NCBI GenBank assembly: GCA_963847445.1
Contig: CAWJZV010000034.1
Span: 224,001 to 288,000, forward strand
DNA: 64,000 bases
Direction of reading: 5' to 3'
From: an uncultured delta proteobacterium
GTDB taxonomy: Bacteria > Desulfobacterota > Binatia > UBA9968
The notes under the pieces are model-generated. The model saw nothing but the letters and a program-made list of their open reading frames with translations. It was not told the origin of the DNA and ran no database searches. The position numbers and the translations under genes were made by a program. Every line of letters starts with the position of its first letter. The first letter of the stretch is position 1. Shown one piece after another: positions 1-54,014 of this stretch.

Positions 1-1547
1 AGGTGATGCCGGTGATGTAGAAGTGCAGCTTTGACGCCCAGAAGTAGGGATCTTCGCCGCCGGTTTCGAGCACGTCGCCCAATAACGCGTCGTTGCGTCT
101 GCCACCATCAGTTCTTTCAGTCGCGACACGCTGAGCGGCCCTTTGGCTCGTTCTTCGTAAAAAGATTTTTCAAACTCGATAGCGCACGGGAATGTCCAAC
201 AAGTAGACCGCGCCATGGCCGACTTCGATGTCGAGGATACGCGCTTTGTCACTGTCGCTGACCGTCGGGTCGTCGAGGATGCCGTTCATCAAGACATTTT
301 CGCCGAAGGTCGACGCGGTTTCCGCCAGCGTCATCGGATAGCCGCGGGCGTAGGGACGGACGTCGCGCATCATGGCGCCGTGATAGGCGTGGCCCGATTC
401 ATGGGCGAGGGTCAGCACATCGCCGAGGGATTCGTTGTAGGTCATGAAGATGCGCGATTCTTTGCTGAGCATGGAGCTGGTGCAAAAACCGCCGGGCCGT
501 TTGCCCGGGCGCGGCTCCCAATCGACCCAGTTCTTGCCGATGACCTGCTCGGTGAAGAATCTTCCCAGCGCGGGTAGGCGCGGCTAAACGACTGCGGCGA
601 CGGTGGCTTGGGCTTTGTCCCAAGACAGTTTCCCGTGATCCGGCAGATCGAGGGGCGCGCCGAGATCGAACCAGGCGACCTGCTGGCGCGCCATCGATTT
701 GGCTTTTAGTTGGAGAATACGCCGCGGTATTTCCAGGTTCGCCATCAGCGCCTCGAACATGGCGTCGAGGGTCTTGCGCCCGATCGCGGCTTGAAAAAGC
801 GCGATGTCGAGAAAGTGATCGACGCCGCGGTGGCGATTCAGTGTCAGCCGTGTGCCGGCGATGGCGTTGAGGGCGGCGGCGGCGGTGTCTTCGACGCTTT
901 GCCAAGCCGCGTTGCCGCCTTCGAAGGCGGCTTGGCGCACACGCCGGTCGGGATCGTCCATCAACGAGCGGCGTTGCGACATCGGCAAACGCGCGCGCTT
1001 GCCGTCGGGATAGACCATGTCGAATTCTAGTTTGGCAGACACCGTATCGTAGAGCCGGCCCCAGGCCTGGATGCCGTCGATGCCCAAGTCGGTGGCGAGG
1101 ATTTCTTTTTCCGCCGTCATGGCGCGGCGCGCTTCTTCGCGCAGGCGGGTCAGATAGTTCTGCGCCCCAGCCAGTGCGGGACGGGCGCAGAATGCCGCAA
1201 AGACTTTGTCATCGGCGCTCTTGCAGGCGCGCAGCAGTTCGATTCTGCACTTTAGCGAGCTCGGCGCGGGTGCGGCTGAGCTCGGCTTCTTCTTTCTGAT
1301 AACCCTCGTTGCGCGCGTCGGATGAAGCCAGGCAACCGATGTAGGAACCGAGGTGCGACATGCGGCGCGACAGGTCTTCGTTGCGCAGGAGAATATCTTC
1401 CCAGTCTGGTGCCGATTGCGCAGTAAGGGCCGGTAAACCAGCGGCGGTTGCTGCAGCGCAGCGACATCGGCGCGGATGGCTGTCTTTGAATTGAACCATT
1501 TCGGCGCCGTTAAATTCAGGAAAGTAACTCGTCAGGTCCCAGGTCAT
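1..1547 (-). CDS. M3 family oligoendopeptidase F (frameshifted, runs off window start)
   Basis: Pieces in ORFs 1209-1592 (MTWDLTSYFPEF), 584-1120 and 170-472 (TLAHESGHAYH zinc motif, LAETASTFGE) join into a PepF-like protein. Confidence 0.85.
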
Positions 1548-42240: not shown

Positions 42241-42741
42241 CTATCGCGATTTCTTCAACATGAAGTCCAAATCTTCAGAGAGCGACTGGAGATCCTCCTC
42301 GTGCGCCACTTCGTCCTGAAGAATTTGCAAAACCATATTGTAAGTGACTGGGTCTTTTGTCTGAGTCGCCTCCAAAAGTTTCTTGTAAAAGCCAATGGCG
42401 CAGCGCTCGCCCTTGATGTTTTGGCTTAGGATAGTCTCGACGAACGGGTCATCGGGCGCGTCGTAGCCGCAACTGGTCACGTCATACCATTTTTTCGGCT
42501 CGGCCACCGGCGTGCCGCCGAGCTGGATGATCCGGGCCGCGACCATGTCGGCGTGACGCAACTCGTCGGTAGCATGTTGCAGCAATTCGGCGATCACCGC
42601 TTCTTTCATCGGACCCTTCACGACCTTGGCGCCCAGCCAGTATTGGTAATAGGCGAGCCACTCATCGGCGAACGCCATATTGAGCAGCTTCAACAGTTGT
42701 TCCACGTCCATGCCGACAATTTCTCTTCCTTTGGTGCCCAT
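42241..42741 (-). CDS. DPS-like (DPSL/thioferritin) ferritin-family protein
   Basis: ADEWLAYYQYW, DELRH, SCGY and ERCAI cysteine pair, DEVAHE. Confidence 0.88.
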   Translation of the reverse strand: MGTKGREIVGMDVEQLLKLLNMAFADEWLAYYQYWLGAKVVKGPMKEAVIAELLQHATDELRHADMVAARIIQLGGTPVAEPKKWYDVTSCGYDAPDDPFVETILSQNIKGERCAIGFYKKLLEATQTKDPVTYNMVLQILQDEVAHEEDLQSLSEDLDFMLKKSR

Positions 42742-42829
42742 AATATTCTTCTCCTGTTTGTTCAATTTTTAGATGCACAACCACCGTGTAATTCCCTTAA
42801 GTATCGGCGATTGATCGCCATCAAGCGAC

Positions 42830-42891
42830 AAGAGCCCGCGCTTCGCCGCAAACGCGAAACGCCGGGCTCTGGGTTCGTGACCGCTGGCCTC
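42830..42891 (-). promoter_or_regulatory. Structured leader element, copy 1 (heptad repeats plus hairpin, no U-tract)
   Basis: AGAGGCC AGCGGTC ACGAACCC AGAGCCCGGCGTTTCGC-loop-GCGAAGCGCGGGCTCT; homologous to 51486-51555. Confidence 0.8.
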
Positions 42892-42907
42892 TTGGTTTAC
42901 TTGACAA

Positions 42908-46900: not shown

Positions 46901-49118
46901 TTAGAACTTGAAGCTCGCGCTGCCGATGAACGTGCGGCCCGCGCCAGGCAACGACGTGTCCCCGCTGAGACTGTCGAATAGTAATGGTCGTTGGTCAGAT
47001 TGATCGCGTTGACCCGCAATTGGAATATTCTTGTTGAGCTGGTACGCCACCGTCGAATCCCAGCGAACATGATCCGGGACACGGGCGATTGTTTGGCGGC
47101 ATTGTTGTAATCGACAGCCGACATAGGTCGGGCCGCCGCCGATTTGCCATTTTTCGAGAAAGTCGTAGGTGACCCAAACGTTCGCGCTGTGCGTCGGCAC
47201 GTTGGCGAGTTCGTTGCCGATGATGGCGGGGTTGGTGTCGATTTGCGAATCTTCGATATCGAGGTATGTGTAACCGCTAAAGATATTCAAGCCGGGGAGA
47301 AGGCGGCCAGAGAGCCCGAATTCGACACCCTGTGAACGCGTGCTCACCGTCAAGCACATTAGCGTCCGCGGTCGGATCAATCGGATTCGGTGTACACGGG
47401 CATCGGTTTTGTCGATTCGAAATACCGCGCCTTGCAGATTCAGGGCTCCATTGAAGAATTCCAGTTTGCCGCCGATTTCGAAGGTTCTGTTTTTTTCCGG
47501 AGGGGCACCTGTCGGTGTTAGGTGCCAAGGGCATGGCTTCGGCGGAGGGATTGAACGCGGTGCGCATAGGAGAAATAGTAGCTCTGTGACGGGGTCGGGT
47601 GAAAGATCAGACCGCCTCGATAACTCCACATTCGATCTGTCCGACCCAGGTCCGAACGAGCCGTTATCGCGCCAGTGGTATTATGCGTGATCGTGTCAAA
47701 GTCGTTGTCGAAGTAATCCCAACGGACGCCGCCGACGAGATCGAAATACTGGTTTAGCTTGATCTGATCTGCGGCGAAGATGCCGAAACCGAAGGCACTG
47801 CCGTCTGCGCGACTCGATACCGAGCGCGACATTCCCGCGGTACTGGCAACTGATTGTGGTTGGGATTGTTGAGCGTTGTGCCGGAGGCACTCCGACGAAA
47901 GCGTAGTGGTTCGTCGAAGGTCTCCCGCGATACCTCCAGCCCGGATGTGACTGTGTGATTGAAACCGAAGGTGTCGAACTTGGCGGTAAGATCCGTTTGG
48001 TTGCTCAGAATGCTTTCCTAGGTATCGCGCTGCCGGTCGGCTTCCGGTGAACAGGGTCGGGGATGACATTGACGCGTGGCGCTTGGTTTCGTGAATCCCG
48101 GTCGACGTGGCTGTAGCGGAGGGTGTTCCGCAAGGTGAACATATCGTTGAAGCGGTGATCCAACCGCGAGGTGCCGATATTCACCGTTGTTTCTTCGTTG
48201 TCTTCATTGGCAAAGCCATAGAAGTTCTTGCGGTCGATGCGTAACGGACGGCCATTCTACGTACGGAAAACCGTAATCAGGAATATTGTCTTCAGCTTGA
48301 AGCAGGTAGCTCAATGTTAGCTGCGTCGGCGTGCCCAAGCCGAACGCAGATCGACGGCGCAAACCCCAGCCGCTTGCTGCTTCGATCTTGTCGCGTTCCA
48401 CGAACATCGTCTTTGTGGGCCATGAGGTTGATGCGGAAAGCCGCATGGGCAGCCCTGGGGAATCGGTTGGTTGACATCGATGGTGCCGCGCAGGTAGATC
48501 CGTTGCCGCCAACGCTAAAAATGCCGTCGTAGCTCGGGGTCGAGTTGAGGAACTTTGCTGACCTGATTGATCGATGCCGCCGGTGGAGCCACGACCGAAG
48601 TATAGGGAGGACGGTCCTTTTAGAACTTCGACGGATTCGAGATTGAACACATCTCGAAAATAGGAGCCCGGAGTCGCGCACCCCGTCGATGATACATGTC
48701 GTTGCTCGCGTTGTAGCCCGCGCAGCGTCAAGTTGTCGCCTTGAACCGCCGCCTTCGCCTGCACGGAAACGTAATACCAGGCACGTTGCGCAACGCATCG
48801 CGCAAGGTCGCAGCCGGCCTGTTCTTCGATTAATCTTCTGCGGCATCACGGTAATCGACTGCGGCATGTTTTTCAGTGGTACGGGAATCTCGATAGGGAC
48901 GATTGCGGCACTACATAGGGGCTATCTTGATCCTGCACCACCACCGGCGGCAGGGTAATCGGTTCCTCTTTTTTCGGCTCCGCCGCGCCTGCGTGGCTTG
49001 CCAGCGCAAAGCTGAAAGCCATCGCCTTGCCAACTCCTTCACCGGCGGCGAGACAGATTTTTTGGAACGCTGTCTTGTTATTTTTTCTTTCGTTCGCGCG
49101 CTTTTGTTGTCGACTCAT
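46901..49118 (-). CDS. TonB-dependent siderophore receptor (Fiu/PiuA-like), heavily frameshifted
   Basis: [34 protein letters not shown], terminal Phe. Confidence 0.85.
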
Positions 49119-49150
49119 CTCATCCTCCATAACGTTAGGGTTGCTTGATT

Positions 49151-49190
49151 GGCTGGCTTTCCACGTCCGGAGGGCTGGATGGCTGGCTGG
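49151..49190 (-). promoter_or_regulatory. AGCCAGCC direct repeats flanking a small hairpin between hemP and the receptor
   Basis: CCAGCCAGCC-ATCCAGCCC-TCCGGACGTGGA-AAGCCAGCC. Confidence 0.55.
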
Positions 49191-49202
49191 GTCAGAAATC
49201 AT

Positions 49203-49395
49203 TTACTTTCGTCAAAATCAGTTTGCCGTTTCTGGTGATGCGCAGGTTGTATTCCTCCTTTTGGTGCACGATGACGATCTCGCTGTTGCCTTGAAACAGG
49301 TGATTGCTTTCGATGCGCGGCTTTTTCCCGGACGGCGCCGAGCTGCTCGGCGTGACCGTTCGTTTGGTAGCGAAATTCACAAGCGTTTCTCCCAT
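49203..49395 (-). CDS. hemP: Hemin uptake regulator HemP/HmuP
   Basis: LFQG..EIVIVH..EEYNLRITRNGKLILTK signature. Confidence 0.9.
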
Positions 49396-49403
49396 GGGTC
49401 TTC

Positions 49404-50238
49404 CTAGTGCAGTTCGAACTTCACCGGCAACATCACCCATACCGACACCGCTTCTTTGCCCCGGCGGGCCGGCTCGAAGAGCCATTTTTTAACCGCTTCC
49501 ACAGCGGCGAAATCGAGATCGCGAAAACCGGCGGACTGATCGACCATCACTTCGCCGACCCGGCCATTCTCCAACACGCGGACGCGCAATGTTGTTACGC
49601 CCTGCACACCAGCTCTTCGCGCGGACTCGGGATAGCGCGGCTTGACTTGGTAACCGCCGAGTGGCCGAGCCAGACCCGATAGTGCTTCTCCGGAGCCCGC
49701 GCCGCCGCCGGTGCCGTCGCCCTTGGCGCCTCGACCCAGTCCCGACGCGCCTGTGCCGCCGCCACCGCCGGCAACGCCGCTGCCGCCGACCACGCCCACA
49801 TCGCCCTTGCCGAAAAGATTGCCGGCACCGGCGGCGCTGCCTTCGGCTTCGGCCGCGCTTGCGACGCCGACGTTCCAGCCGGCCTTGGCGGCACCGGTGT
49901 TATCCGGTAGCGAGGCGAGCGGCTGTTCGACCGGTTTCTCTTTGACTCTCTTCCTTGGTGTTGCCGGTCGGCGGCAGCGGGCTGGTTTCGAAAACCGGTT
50001 TGGATAGAAGCTTCGGCGCGGTGATATTTTGCAGCTTGGGTTTGGGCGCTGGAGGAGGCGGAGGCGGTGTGACCTCGACTTTCTTCGGTTCCTCGATGCG
50101 CGCCACATCCACCAGCTCAATCGGTACCATGGCGGGTTTAATCGGTTTGGCGTGCATCACCAACGCAGCCAACGGAATTATGCCCAAATGAATCAACGAC
50201 GACGCAGTGAATGAAGATACCAACCAGCGCTCGTTCAT
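49404..50238 (-). CDS. tonB: Energy transducer TonB (frameshifted)
   Basis: TM helix with SSLIH, Pro- and Gly-rich linker, PRYPESARRAGVQG, WLFEPA. Confidence 0.9.
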
Positions 50239-50648
50239 TTTTTCTGCTCCTTCGGTTTTACCGCGATGGCCATCTTTGCCACGTTGGCGCCGCGGGCGAT
50301 GTCCATGACTTCGACCACCTGGCCGTGCTGAACGCCGTCGTCGGCGTTGATGACGACCAGCATCTCGGCATTCTTCGCAAGTTGCTGGCGCAAAGCTTCA
50401 CCGAGAGCCGCTTTGTCGATCGCTTGCTGGTTGAGAAACAACCGGCCGTCTTTATCGATCGTGATCGCCGCGCTCTCGGCAGGCGCCTGCTGGCCGGACG
50501 CCGCCTTGGGCAGATTGACCGGCATGCCTTTGAACTGGGTCATCGACAAGGTCGAGATCATGAAAAAGACCAGTAGAAAAAAAATCGTGTCGATCATCGG
50601 GATGATCTCGATGCGCGCTTTCTTGATGCTGCGGCGTTGAATGCGCAT
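50235..50648 (-). CDS. exbD: Biopolymer transporter ExbD
   Basis: IIPMIDTIFFLLVFFM, VNLP, INAD. Confidence 0.92.
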   Translation of the reverse strand: MRIQRRSIKKARIEIIPMIDTIFFLLVFFMISTLSMTQFKGMPVNLPKAASGQQAPAESAAITIDKDGRLFLNQQAIDKAALGEALRQQLAKNAEMLVVINADDGVQHGQVVEVMDIARGANVAKMAIAVKPKEQKK

Positions 50649-51256
50649 TAATGCTTCCCCGCATGTTCATGCAGCAACAATTCCAGCGAAGAGCTGAAGT
50701 GCTCCATGCGGTCCATTTCGCGCTCGACCTTGGCGGTGAAGTAGTTGTAGGAGACCAGAGTCAAGATCGCGATCAACAAGCCCGTGGCAGTCGCGATCAG
50801 CGCTTCCGCGACTCCGCCGGTAATGGCGTGGGGTTGCCCCATGCCCGCTTCCGACATGACATCGAAGGAGCCGATCATGCCGACGACGGTGCCGAGCAAT
50901 CCGAGCAGAGGGGCAAGCGTCACGATGGTGTCGAGAATTCCCAGGCGGCTTTTAAGCACGGGAATCTCGGCCTGCGCCAGAGCTTCCATTGCCTTCGCCG
51001 GCGCGGGATTGCGGTGGGCGATACCCGCTGCTAAAACCCGCGCGATTGGCTGGCTGGAGTTCTTGCCCAGGTTTAAAGCTTGTTCGAATTCGCCCTTTTC
51101 GACCAATGATAAGATTTGTTGTAGGACATCTTTCGTTTTCAGTTTGGCCCAAAACACAAACCGTTCGATGGTGAGCGCGAGTGAGATCAAGGAGCAAGCG
51201 AGCAGCGGGATCATGACGATGCCGCCTTTGATGATGATTGCAATAAATGCCGACAT
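50648..51256 (-). CDS. exbB: ExbB/TolQ/MotA proton channel protein
   Basis: APLLGLLGTVVGMI, GVAEALIATATGL. Confidence 0.92.
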   Translation of the reverse strand: MSAFIAIIIKGGIVMIPLLACSLISLALTIERFVFWAKLKTKDVLQQILSLVEKGEFEQALNLGKNSSQPIARVLAAGIAHRNPAPAKAMEALAQAEIPVLKSRLGILDTIVTLAPLLGLLGTVVGMIGSFDVMSEAGMGQPHAITGGVAEALIATATGLLIAILTLVSYNYFTAKVEREMDRMEHFSSSLELLLHEHAGKH

Positions 51257-51258
51257 GA

Positions 51259-51472
51259 CTATTGGACCAGACCCTTTCTTTAGCTCGATGTGACTTTCCG
51301 TTTCACTTAGTTCGTTACTTTCGGCGACGCTTTGCATGGCGAGACCAAGTTCGCGCAGGTCGTCACGGGCGATATGCAGGACGACGCTGCCGTAGTGAAA
51401 ATGGGCGGTGTCCTGGCTGCAATTGCAAAGCGAGACCGACCATCTGCCGTTGGATGATTTGATTCCGTACAT
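51259..51472 (-). CDS. Small Cys/His protein heading the exbB operon
   Basis: GGAGG RBS then MYGIKSSNGRWSVSLCNCSQDTAHFHYG...; a TAG at 51259-51261 lies 2 nt before the exbB ATG, so the apparent fusion to exbB probably reflects an indel. Confidence 0.65.
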
Positions 51473-51485
51473 TTTGACCTCCAAT

Positions 51486-51555
51486 AAAAAAAGAGCCCGA
51501 GGTTCCGCCAACTTTTCGCGGAACGCCGGGCTCTGGATTCTAGATCGCTGGCCGC
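51486..51555 (-). terminator. Structured leader element, copy 2: heptad repeats plus intrinsic terminator before the first RBS
   Basis: AGCGGCC AGCGATC TAGAATCC AGAGCCCGGCGTTCCGC-loop-GCGGAACCTCGGGCTC-TTTTTTT-ATTGGAGG. Confidence 0.85.
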
Positions 51556-51565
51556 TGACTAGGGT

Positions 51566-51618
51566 TGTATATTCAAATCATAATTATTTGTCAATACTAA
51601 TATAAAAATATTAGTATT
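51566..51618 (-). promoter_or_regulatory. Putative sigma70 promoter of the exbB operon with an 11-4-11 inverted repeat at the -35
   Basis: TTGACA-17bp-TATACA; AATACTAATAT-AAAA-ATATTAGTATT at 51593-51618. Confidence 0.7.
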
Positions 51619-51675
51619 AACTAATAATAATTCCTAAGCTATTGAAGATATACTCATTTAATCATGCCGAGTAGC

Positions 51676-51897
51676 CTATATATTTCCCAAATCTGCTTCG
51701 GATGCCGCACCATCCTGATTATCGCGGCCCTCGGTACTGAGGGGAATCACTACCCGGCGTTTGCAGCGGCGACACTTGAGCTCCACGCCTTCGGGTACCA
51801 AGCGCGCGAGCAAGCTACCGCAATGGCAGCGGAGCGCATCGCCGTCCTTAGTCACCGTCCCCGCCGTTTCCTGTTCGCCTTGCCTTGGAATACGCAT
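51676..51897 (-). CDS. Com-like (phage Mu Com family) zinc-ribbon protein
   Basis: LRCHCGSLLAR...VELKCRRCKR; ATG immediately follows the FTR1 stop codon. Confidence 0.75.
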   Translation of the reverse strand: MRIPRQGEQETAGTVTKDGDALRCHCGSLLARLVPEGVELKCRRCKRRVVIPLSTEGRDNQDGAASEADLGNI

Positions 51898-53851
51898 TTA
51901 AGCCACTGCCTTATTTCGTTCATGCGCCATCCATAATGAGGTAGCTATAAATATGCCGACCAATAGCCCCTGGGCTGCCAGGGTTTCCATGGTCGGATAG
52001 ATACCCAACAGCGGCACCGCCGGCGGAAAATTGAGCGGCGTCGCCGGAACCCAGCCGGCCGCCTGCAATTGATTGATGCCGGTGCCGGCGAAGATGAAGG
52101 CCATGATGTAGAGCAGTGTGCCGGTGACGCCGAAGAAAGTATTTTAGCGGTAGCGCAGGCCGAGCTTGAAGATCGCAAAGGTAGCCGCGACCAGCGCGAC
52201 CAAGCCCGCGGCGAATCCGCCAAGGATGGCCTGGTGGCTGATTTTCATTCTGTAACCAGAGCGCTTGATAGAAGAGCACGACCTCGAAGGCTTCGCGGTA
52301 GACAGCGAAAAATGAGATGCCGATGAGTCCGAAGATACGTCTGCGTCGAAAGCACGTTTTGCACCTTGTCTTGAATAAATGCATGCCACCGTTTTAGCCT
52401 CGGTCCGGGTGTGCAGCCAATAGCCGACATAGAACAGCGCCGACGCAGCGAAGATCGAAATGAATCCTTCCATGCTTTCACGGTGCTGGCCGCTGAAAGT
52501 CAGCACGGTTTGGGCGGCGAGCCAGGTGAGGAAACCGGCGGCCAACTGCGAGAATCCAGCCGAAATGGATGTAGCGAATCGATTTTGTCGCGCCCATAAC
52601 CCGCAGCATGGCGATGATCGCGGCGAGAATCAGCGCCGCCTCGAGTCCTTCGCGTAAAATGATCAGGGCCGAATTCAAGAATGCGTAATAACCGGAGAAA
52701 TCATCGCTGCTGGCCAACAGCTGTGCCGCCTGGTCGAGCTTGGCTTCGATTTCGCAGCGTGTTGTTTTTGAATCTCCTCGGCGGAAACTCCCTGCCGGAT
52801 CGAATTGCGAAACTGGGTGAACTGGGCCTCGAGAGATCTGTCCCAAGGCCGCATCCTTGGCGAACAGCGTCGGCTCGGCCATCTCGATAGCCGTCAAGGT
52901 AGGCCTCGATGGCTTTTTGGTAAGCTTTTTCCTTATCGCCTTTGCGTATATCTCAGCGGCTTCGCCGAGCAGGGTCGCGGGCGATCAACAATGGATCGGT
53001 CGATTTTTCGTCCAGAAGCCCGCGCCTGAGGTAGGCGAGAATGTCGTTGCTCGGCGCGTTGGGAAAACTCTTCTTGATTTTATCGGATAGCTCGCTCGTC
53101 TGAAGAAGTTGCCAAGGTCGCGACGCCTGCGAGTCGGCCGGCAGCGACTTGCCTTTCAGCCAGGACTCTCCGCGCCGGCTTTGCCGTTCGTCAGCGGGAA
53201 AACGCAGCGCCAAAACATAGAAGGCGACTTGCCAGCGTTGCTCGTCCGGCAGCGCGGCGAAGGAAGCCATCGCCGTTTTGTCGATGCCGAACTGGTCGTG
53301 TTGTAGACTTTAAAAGGCGAGAGTCCGGCCATGAAGTCTGCGTCGGTGAAATTGGCCGGCGGCGGGGTTTTGGGATTCATCGACTCGCGGCCGGGGCCGT
53401 CGCCTTTGCCGCTCTCGCCATGGCACTGAGCGCAATTCTGCGTGTAGACGAGTTTCGCGCCGCTCGAAGTTCGGCAGAGCCTTGGGGTAGGTGACGATAT
53501 TATAGGTTTTGATCAAGCGGTCCTTGATCTGCTGGGCCAATTGCGGCACGGCATCTTCGCCGGTTTTATCTTGTATATGCTTCGCCAGCGCTTGCAGATC
53601 TTTTTCGATGCCCGCTTTATCGCCTTCGGCGGATTTGAGTTGGTTGAACAGCTCCGAGCTGCGCGCCGAGAACTCGCTCATCTCCGATACTCGTCGGCGT
53701 TGACAACTTTCCCGCCTTGCACGGCGTTGCGATAGTCGCCGCCGATGTAATCGATTAGCGCCAGAATTCGCTTGGCTTCGTCACCGGCAGCGAATGCGCC
53801 GGTCGCCGTTAGAATGATCAGCCCAAGGAAGAGGAAGAACCGACTGCACAT
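51898..53851 (-). CDS. FTR1 iron permease fused to a cytochrome c domain (several frameshifts)
   Basis: LIDYIGGDY, CAQCHG, LREGLEA and YREAFE (two RExxE motifs), LGIYPT. Confidence 0.87.
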
Positions 53852-53893
53852 GACTCGTGTCGATCTGGTCGCGGAGGATGAAGCCATAGTGGT

Positions 53894-53922
53894 CGTATAT
53901 GTAAGGAGCCGAACTTTATCAA
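53894..53922 (-). promoter_or_regulatory. Putative promoter of the FTR1/com-like unit
   Basis: TTGATA-17bp-TATACG. Confidence 0.5.
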
Positions 53923-54014
53923 AAATTCTTTTGTCCAATAACATTTCAGGTCGATTCTTTGCGCCTGCCCGGAGCCGTAAACGGGTTCGCTCGTCTCCCG
54001 CAAGGACGGCTCAG

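Follow-up and report, generated by a model that had tools for sequence, protein, structure and literature searches.

What does a small Cys4 zinc-ribbon protein resembling Com of phage Mu do among the iron genes of an uncultured delta proteobacterium? We addressed this question in a stretch of 64,000 nucleotides (nt) of contig CAWJZV010000034.1 (assembly GCA_963847445.1, positions 224,001 to 288,000; hereafter the window), in which the gene for such a protein is followed, on the same strand, by a short leader with two CCAG(A/C)G repeats and an intrinsic terminator. We consider the chances about even that this short leader RNA, which lies ahead of iron-homeostasis genes, has the Com-like protein as its dedicated trans-acting factor, and within that reading we infer RNA binding, antitermination and the direction of the effect.

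The Com-like open reading frame (ORF) is a real conserved gene rather than a chance frame, because 330 homologues were found at E ≤ 1e-3 (proteins of 40-128 residues) and an alignment of 52 homologues displayed 16 invariant columns, including all four cysteines. The translation, LRCHCGSLLARLVPEGVELKCRRCKRR included, agreed with the 73-residue CxC…CxxC protein described in an earlier note on this DNA. The invariant core of the alignment reads RCxCGSLxAR…G.E.KCRxCKR, with a run of basic residues. An AlphaFold AF2 model had a mean predicted local distance difference test (pLDDT) of 62, with core residues 21-52 forming three short strands (block pLDDT 70-83) and disordered ends. A sequence search of the PDB with the Com-like protein returned only C1 domains of protein kinase C, at an E of about 0.1. 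Com-like proteins from Sorangium (L023, L026, L033, L050, L052, L064, L073) carried an additional N-terminal C..CG pair. The gap between gene and leader, previously estimated at about 120 nt, was measured as 117 nt from the stop codon (51676-51678) to the leader start (51559), with about 140 nt between the stop codon and the terminator stem (51534-51492).

The leader motif is about 25 nt long and has the consensus (A/G)G(C/A)GGCC(A/C)G(A/C)G, then a 3-8-nt loop closed by 3 bp, then CCAG(A/C)GCCC, the part 3' of the mini-hairpin being written CCAGAGCCC. In the window, the mini-hairpin pairs 51546-51544 with 51538-51536. RNAalifold analysis of 48 leaders independently placed a mini-hairpin between the repeats, in which pair 17:26 was GC in 23 leaders, AU in 13 and GU in 12, and broken in none. 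Across 54 distinct instances (omitting four matches that were in coding sequence or chance-like: L073, L093, L098, L100) the two variable pairs of the mini-hairpin were standard in 52 and 51, compared to 1-2 when the partner was slid by one base. These pairs covaried, one being GC in 29 instances, AU in 11 and GU in 11, and the next UA in 36 and CG in 13. The orientation of the motif relative to the downstream gene was constant, and at three loci (L040, L041, L020) the element began 2-29 nt past a stop codon, too close for a promoter to fit in between. This constancy of orientation, the G·U pairs and the short distances from stop codons favour an element that acts as RNA over an operator in DNA.

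The second repeat also belongs to the terminator. The earlier note had assigned a repeat to the terminator's 5' arm, and both the inverted repeat and RNAalifold bear this out, with the second CCAGAG repeat forming the 5' foot (pairs 29-36 with 76-69) and its AGAG pairing with CUCU by the U-tract. The upper stem was variable, with compensating changes in relatives. In the window the terminator hairpin had a minimum free energy of -40.2 kcal/mol (z -3.9) and was followed by U6, GGAGG and an ATG at 51472, which opens a small ORF fused to exbB. As in an attenuator, the presumed site overlaps an arm of the predicted terminator between the promoter-like site and the start codon. Neither RNAalifold nor folding of the leader revealed an alternative, RNA-only antiterminator hairpin, which means that some ligand or other factor has to act. 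The U-tract of a second leader copy, 5' of a ferritin-like gene, is interrupted (CUCUUGUCGCUUG), and termination there may be weaker. Leaders of the Myxococcaceae retained an invariant motif with no U-tract; the motif is followed by a variable hairpin and then by another hairpin, the 3' arm of which extends into GGAGGA. A search of Rfam 15 left the element of the window unmatched at E ≤ 10 and gave the Myxococcus leader chance-level matches only (E 0.3 or worse, far below gathering scores). RNA-seq data for the Myxococcus xanthus locus (reads of three runs, contigs of one) had even depth in both mate orientations and no leader starts or ends, and were uninformative for strand, termination or level.

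Gene and motif occurred together whichever of them was searched for. From 385 stretches encoding relatives, 80 were taken as loci (one genome per species scanned), originating from Binatia-like and 'delta' metagenome-assembled genomes, Myxococcus, Corallococcus, Sorangium, Haliangium and a few other phyla. With the window added, the motif was detected by regular expression within 350 nt 3' of the gene and on the same strand at 58 of 81 loci, where at least six kinds of gene stood downstream, including exbB-exbD-tonB, a haem receptor, a cupredoxin and DUF6662. A mononucleotide shuffle of all loci yielded about 21 loose matches, scattered anywhere. The genome of the window's organism (7.19 Mb) held one gene and exactly two canonical motifs, with none in a reversed-sequence control; one motif follows the gene and the other is 8.7 kb away, ahead of the ferritin-like gene. 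Myxococcus sp. Y35 (complete, 9.5 Mb) had one pattern match, after the gene, and the genomes of L008 and L066 had four and two, all at the gene's locus. In two Sorangium chromosomes the motif was found about 11 kb from the gene, after an AT-rich stretch, in the leader of a siderophore-type isochorismate-synthase gene.

Sampling by phylum gave a similar picture. In the sample of the window's phylum the gene was present in 6 of 151 genomes and the element lay near it in four (G000; G076 at 34 nt; G097 at 28 nt, weak; G110 at 1.2 kb), while the loose pattern matched 9 of the 151 genomes compared to 4 matches of the reversed control. The gene was detected in 52 of 201 sampled Myxococcota genomes, as a single chromosomal copy in 51 of them, and an exact pattern followed 46-111 nt past the gene match on the same strand in 33 of the 52. 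Loose matches in gene-negative Myxococcota (28 of 149 genomes, one of which, G350, is flagged as unpublished) were at the background of GC-rich genomes, as the reversed control matched 29 of 201; therefore only a position beside the gene was counted as evidence. These pattern searches with a reversed-pattern control were used in place of a whole-genome search with the RNA model, which was insensitive (28-150 of about 2000 candidates per genome scored) and whose single hit in 151 genomes is no evidence of absence. A motif-first scan of metagenomes gave at least 120 stretches, of which 80 were taken, with 90 instances, 74 of them having at least 450 nt upstream. Among the metagenome matches listed, the gene ended within 450 nt upstream of the motif in 50 of these 74 instances and was located further upstream on the same strand in another 8. 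Among the metagenome contigs (L108, L160), two motif instances on one contig were each preceded by a Com-like match ending 31-44 nt upstream, so that some organisms have two gene-motif pairs about 3.4 kb apart. An independent distribution of gene and motif, which the earlier note had named as counting against its proposal, is contradicted in both directions, from gene to motif and from motif to gene. The link between the two is strongly supported by these sequence comparisons, in which related genomes are non-independent samples, and the comparison shows that gene and element travel together across phyla, both being rare per genome (one gene, one to four elements).

The neighbours of the Com-like gene were iron genes throughout the 80 loci. 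An intact cytochrome c-FTR1 permease gene was located directly 5' in 39 of the 80, and exbB, exbD or tonB followed downstream in 18-23. The downstream genes in Myxococcaceae encode a TonB-dependent receptor with HmuY, HemS/ChuX and a periplasmic binding protein, and the neighbours in Sorangium encode a TonB_C-Plug-barrel fusion and a PepSY_TM protein. At other loci the next gene was a cupredoxin gene, or DUF6662 or an unassigned ORF of about 530 residues followed by FMN_bind and ApbE genes, and some loci had a gene for a Fur or DtxR-type repressor directly 5' of the Com-like gene. The proposed translational coupling to FTR1 holds in the window insofar as the last FTR1-frame ORF (51898-52104) ends in a TAA to which the Com-like ATG is joined without a spacer, but the FTR1 gene itself is broken into frames. 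The proposed target, the TonB operon, is likewise preceded by the motif but is too narrow, as the window also has a copy ahead of the ferritin-like gene; as the sole target it is contradicted by motifs before haem receptor, cupredoxin, DUF6662 and isochorismate synthase genes in relatives. A conserved small ORF (…EERIEVI…LE.R.LRWG.G.GWY.QKT..L…) was observed directly 3' of the Com-like gene at six loci (L012, L013, L024, L055, L062, L074); the L062 copy, the one scanned, matched no Pfam family. A copy of the motif lay 1-1.3 kb beyond this ORF in L012, L013, L024 and L062, and none was found in L055 and L074.

Judged by its sequence, the Com-like protein is a remote relative of Mu Com that falls outside the family by the curated test. 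A family profile (A1) aligned with Mu Com, taken from the phage Mu genome record, at 92.4% hhalign probability (E 5e-7, 32 columns), a pairwise comparison and so a remote one, with the core matching residues 3-36 of Com. BLASTP of the window protein against Mu Com gave a pairwise E-value of 4e-5, and PHROG 13819 'gpCom' matched with a small-library E-value of 0.0024. All four cysteines, invariant in the 52 sequences, aligned to the four of Com, the first pair being CxC. Many homologues carry the JGI label 'phage FluMu protein Com'. The likeness to Mu Com claimed in the earlier note therefore stands as remote kinship, from hhalign, BLASTP and PHROG, and fails at the curated Pfam model. Its rubredoxin-like knuckle was not recovered, since Pfam gave no match and the first knuckle is CxC, whereas rubredoxin needs two CxxC. 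The phage setting of com, ahead of and overlapping mom, was not found either; the neighbours in the window and in relatives are iron-uptake genes, and every ORF assigned within 42-59 kb of the window is an iron or transport gene.

According to the excerpted text of the study on Mu Com (PMC6483171), the protein consists of a zinc finger and a disordered tail, and the zinc finger by itself is enough for binding. In the same excerpts it binds a short hairpin with the site 5'-CC(N)2-3GAG-3', obtained by systematic evolution of ligands by exponential enrichment, in which an accessible GA is critical, and its binding is thought to melt an adjacent translation-inhibition hairpin of mom (PMC6483171). 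As far as those excerpts describe Com and mom, the Com-like system shares with them a small protein with a Cys4 core (a putative zinc finger in the Com-like protein), disordered ends and remote sequence likeness, a gene directly 5' of the presumed RNA target, and a target that is a short hairpin with CC…GAG-type bases beside an inhibitory hairpin; the leader repeats CC(C)AGAG resemble the Mu Com site CC(N)2-3GAG. The two systems differ in that the Com-like gene is chromosomal, single-copy and placed at iron loci, whereas com adjoins a DNA-modification gene, and in that the inhibitory structure is mostly an intrinsic terminator rather than a ribosome-site hairpin, with at most four targets per genome.

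In the mechanism that we propose, the Com-like protein would bind the two single-stranded CCAG(A/C)G repeats flanking the mini-hairpin. Occupying the second repeat, which forms the terminator's foot, would stop the terminator from closing: the bound protein would hold the CCAGAG foot single-stranded, and RNA polymerase would then continue into the small ORF and on into exbB-exbD-tonB. Read-through would occur likewise at the second copy, ahead of the ferritin-like gene. In Myxococcaceae such binding would more likely free the ribosome site, which is what Mu Com does for mom. As the last cistron of an iron-uptake operon, the gene would yield a product that extends expression to the next unit once the operon is on. 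A far-reaching version, which we regard as a long shot, is that a domesticated Com finger and its RNA site of about 25 nt make up an unrecognised post-transcriptional layer of iron control in Myxococcota, Binatia-like bacteria and scattered phyla, with CxC…CxxC as a Zn/Fe(II)-loaded sensor and read-through reporting iron.

Several observations weigh against the Com-like protein as the factor of this leader. The motif was absent within 350 nt of the gene at 23 of the 81 loci, including all seven Sorangium loci, 19 of the 52 gene-positive Myxococcota genomes had no exact-pattern match beside the gene, and 16 of the 74 motif instances among the metagenome matches listed had no gene on the contig; co-localisation, moreover, falls short of proving interaction. 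On the side of the protein, Pfam and NCBIfam returned zero families for the window protein even at E ≤ 10. The check that the earlier note proposed, a search against the Mu-like Com family, did not reach the model: PF10122 (Zn_ribbon_Com) was touched by 1 of 52 family members, at E 0.32 and below the gathering score. The first knuckle is CxC compared to CxxC in Mu Com, the alignment needing a one-residue gap. A Foldseek search of the AF2 model against viral structures gave no matches at E ≤ 0.001, the domain being too small. On the side of the RNA, the likeness to the Mu Com site rests on 5-6 bases, and GAG is absent from the first repeat of the window copy (CCAGCG). An element ahead of both uptake genes and a ferritin-like gene is no obvious fit to a simple low-iron-on logic, and the promoter-like site and predicted 75-nt terminated transcript of the window would also fit a small-RNA gene.

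We give a modest chance to the protein binding the element with another outcome, either as a repressor that stabilises the terminator or blocks the ribosome site, or as the chaperone or partner of a short terminated transcript that works as an iron-responsive small RNA. The promoter-like site, an operator-like palindrome, a unit of about 75 nt and a strong terminator together have the anatomy of a Fur-type small RNA, and an element that precedes the ferritin-like gene as well as uptake genes fits a factor of mixed outcome. A precedent is provided by FbpA/B/C with FsrA in Bacillus subtilis, which the excerpted text of PMC7430163 describes as small basic iron-regulon proteins thought to work with RNA, their RNA binding being likewise presumed rather than demonstrated. 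FbpA/B/C differ from the Com-like protein in having no zinc finger and no sequence likeness to it, and in their RNA being a trans-acting small RNA. A repressor or small-RNA partner is, however, harder to reconcile with the Shine-Dalgarno (SD) sequence and start codon 5-12 nt past the terminator at most loci, so that the genes depend on read-through, with the several loci at which the interval from the gene's stop codon to the element contains no promoter, and with conserved single-stranded bases that in our own reading are unlike an anti-SD seed.

We think it unlikely that the element is independent of the protein, acting as a riboswitch, a metal-sensing attenuator or a plain operon terminator, with the Cys4 protein serving as a cytoplasmic metal-binding partner for the FTR1 permease or TonB-dependent uptake. 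Iron can be bound by Cys4 sites, and riboswitches as small as about 35-40 nt are known. In the window, without a spacer, and in 39 of 80 loci the gene lies directly against that for the FTR1 permease; its adjacency to the element would be explained if it were merely the last cistron ahead of a terminator, and the leader has no visible antiterminator hairpin of its own. Against this, 41 of the 80 loci have the gene without FTR1 and usually keep the motif, and the gene of Myxococcaceae has no flanking permease and the motif is still 3' of it. A passive terminator would not keep 25 nt upstream across phyla while the top of its stem varies, and the core of the protein is rich in invariant Arg/Lys and aligns with a known RNA-binding finger.

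A DNA-binding transcription factor, with the motif or the AT-rich palindrome as its double-stranded operator, is very unlikely. In its favour, the motif of the window, counted from the promoter-like site, spans about +6 to +30, where repressors bind, and NCBI annotation names such proteins 'Com family DNA-binding transcriptional regulator'. Against it, the covariation of the mini-hairpin with its 11 + 2 G·U pairs is sensible only in RNA, the motif has a single orientation relative to the downstream gene, at several loci it comes right after a stop codon with no promoter nearby, and Mu Com, in the excerpts of PMC6483171, binds RNA.

HemP/HmuP in place of the Com-like protein as the factor for the CCAG-repeat element is hardly plausible and was rejected: the window does have a hemP gene with a CCAGCCAGCC…AGCCAGCC stretch 3' of it, and HmuP-responsive elements (HPREs) are also GCCAGCC repeats in 5' untranslated regions (UTRs) of iron-receptor genes, as far as the excerpted source goes, but PF10636 occurred in just one of five whole genomes with gene and motif (absent from four, including a complete Myxococcus and two complete Sorangium) and in just 15 of 80 loci, and the HPRE-like stretch of the window is a separate one, directly behind hemP and ahead of the receptor gene.

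The HemP system is nevertheless among the closest known parallels to a Com-like protein acting on its leader. The CCAGCCAGCC…CCAGCCC…AGCCAGCC repeats stand directly after the hemP stop codon (49140-49191, minus strand) and resemble HPREs, those given for Chromobacterium chuR and vbuA in the excerpted text of bioRxiv 10.1101/2022.02.10.479982 containing GCCAGCC repeats. From the same excerpts, HemP/HmuP/ChuP with its HPRE shares with the Com-like system a small protein gene directly 5' of a TonB-dependent receptor gene and a CCAG-containing 5'-UTR repeat with proposed post-transcriptional activation under iron limitation (bioRxiv 10.1101/2022.02.10.479982). The Com-like gene of Myxococcaceae sits where hemP sits in proteobacterial haem clusters, and the window seems to hold two parallel pairs of small protein and 5'-UTR element. 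The two proteins belong to unrelated families: HemP binds haem, a Cys4 site is lacking in PF10636, and the Com-like protein did not match the PF10636 model. Attenuators of the TRAP, PyrR, HutP and LicT/SacY type have a protein on leader repeats overlapping a terminator arm that decides termination. Their folds are unrelated to the Com-like protein, they sense a small ligand or phosphorylation, and the Com-like leader, unlike theirs, has no visible antiterminator hairpin.

The features of the locus are collected in the following table.

Features of the Com-like gene, its leader element and their surroundings (window positions, except for the Sorangium entry)
Feature	Position	Strand	Basis
Com-like Cys4 zinc-ribbon gene, 73 aa, C24/C26/C42/C45	51676..51897	minus	ORF, homologues and invariant core
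Leader motif GGCCAGCG-AUCUAGAAU-CCAGAGCC, two CCAG(A/C)G repeats flanking a 3-bp mini-hairpin	51529..51553	minus	regular expression and alignment
Whole leader: motif, terminator, U-tract, SD, start codon	51467..51559	minus	covariance model R1, 80.5 bits, E 1e-17
Putative intrinsic terminator, 20-nt arms 51534-51515 / 51511-51492, then U6	51486..51534	minus	inverted repeat
Second leader copy, 5' of ferritin-like gene (42241-42741, PF00210)	42804..42895	minus	covariance model R1, 58.8 bits, E 2e-12
Promoter-like TTGACA-17 nt-TATACA, predicted transcript start ~51559	51566..51594	minus	read by eye; similar in relatives
Operator-like inverted repeat, AT-rich, 24 nt; overlaps the exbB leader's promoter-like site	51580..51631		88% complementary
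Cytochrome c / FTR1 iron permease gene, split into several frames	51898..53944	minus	FTR1 matches on fragments
Small Cys-rich ORF (MYGIKSS…CNCS…HFHYG) fused in frame with exbB	50648..51472	minus	MotA_ExbB on residues 153-270
exbD	50235..50648	minus	PF02472, E 1e-32
tonB	49404..50120	minus	TonB_C, E 1e-20
hemP/hmuP-family gene, second unrelated small regulator at the locus	49192..49485	minus	PF10636, E 9e-17
Sorangium distant motif	L094 and L097, positions 1497-1528		pattern match

The promoter-like site is omitted by an automated promoter scan, whose rule demands T at the sixth place of the second hexamer. On comparison with Fur and IdeR boxes, the AT-rich palindrome gave no assignment to Fur or DtxR/IdeR. 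Further on, the window contains PiuC-type oxygenase, DUF3016, PepSY_TM, flavodoxin, DUF4198 and ferritin-like genes. In relatives (L015, L008, L011 and others) a small ORF of about 75 residues (M.GIKS..GRWSVSLCNCS.DTAHFHYGNVVLHI..DDLRELG.AMQSVAE) lies between leader and exbB; it has no Pfam family and corresponds to 51260-51472 on the minus strand of the window, where one extra base at 51274 compared to L002 fuses it to exbB, the two being separate in relatives. The FTR1 gene and a TonB-dependent receptor gene (46901-48867, minus strand) are each split over several frames, with dozens of single-base insertions or deletions outside homopolymers compared to the closest relative, L002, whereas the ABC permease, Com-like, exbD, tonB and PiuC genes between or beside them have few or none. 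This looks like gene-specific decay into pseudogenes rather than general assembly error. An intact homologue of the split permease has 656 residues with FTR1 and Cytochrom_C domains.

No literature linking a Com-type protein to iron genes or describing the leader was found in the main texts of open-access papers and bioRxiv preprints. Both the Com fold and the way in which it acts are known; a cellular iron regulon under such a protein and the RNA element appear to be undescribed. Bacterial iron regulation is understood mainly through Fur-type and DtxR-type repressors and small RNAs, and the Com fold has so far been a phage curiosity and a synthetic-biology RNA tag. Our comparative data point to a third kind of component in iron regulation, a tiny RNA-binding protein of the zinc-finger type that has a leader element of its own, with a reach of about a quarter of the sampled Myxococcota (52/201) plus abundant uncultured soil lineages. 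If this is true, its targets would be TonB energisers, genes for haem and siderophores, genes linked to FTR1 and a ferritin-like gene; the Com fold would have a cellular role for the first time, and the HemP/HPRE pair, itself poorly understood, would gain a functional counterpart. With a protein of 60-75 residues and an RNA of about 90 nt, the system is small, and it is present in the genetically tractable Myxococcus xanthus, so that it is directly testable.

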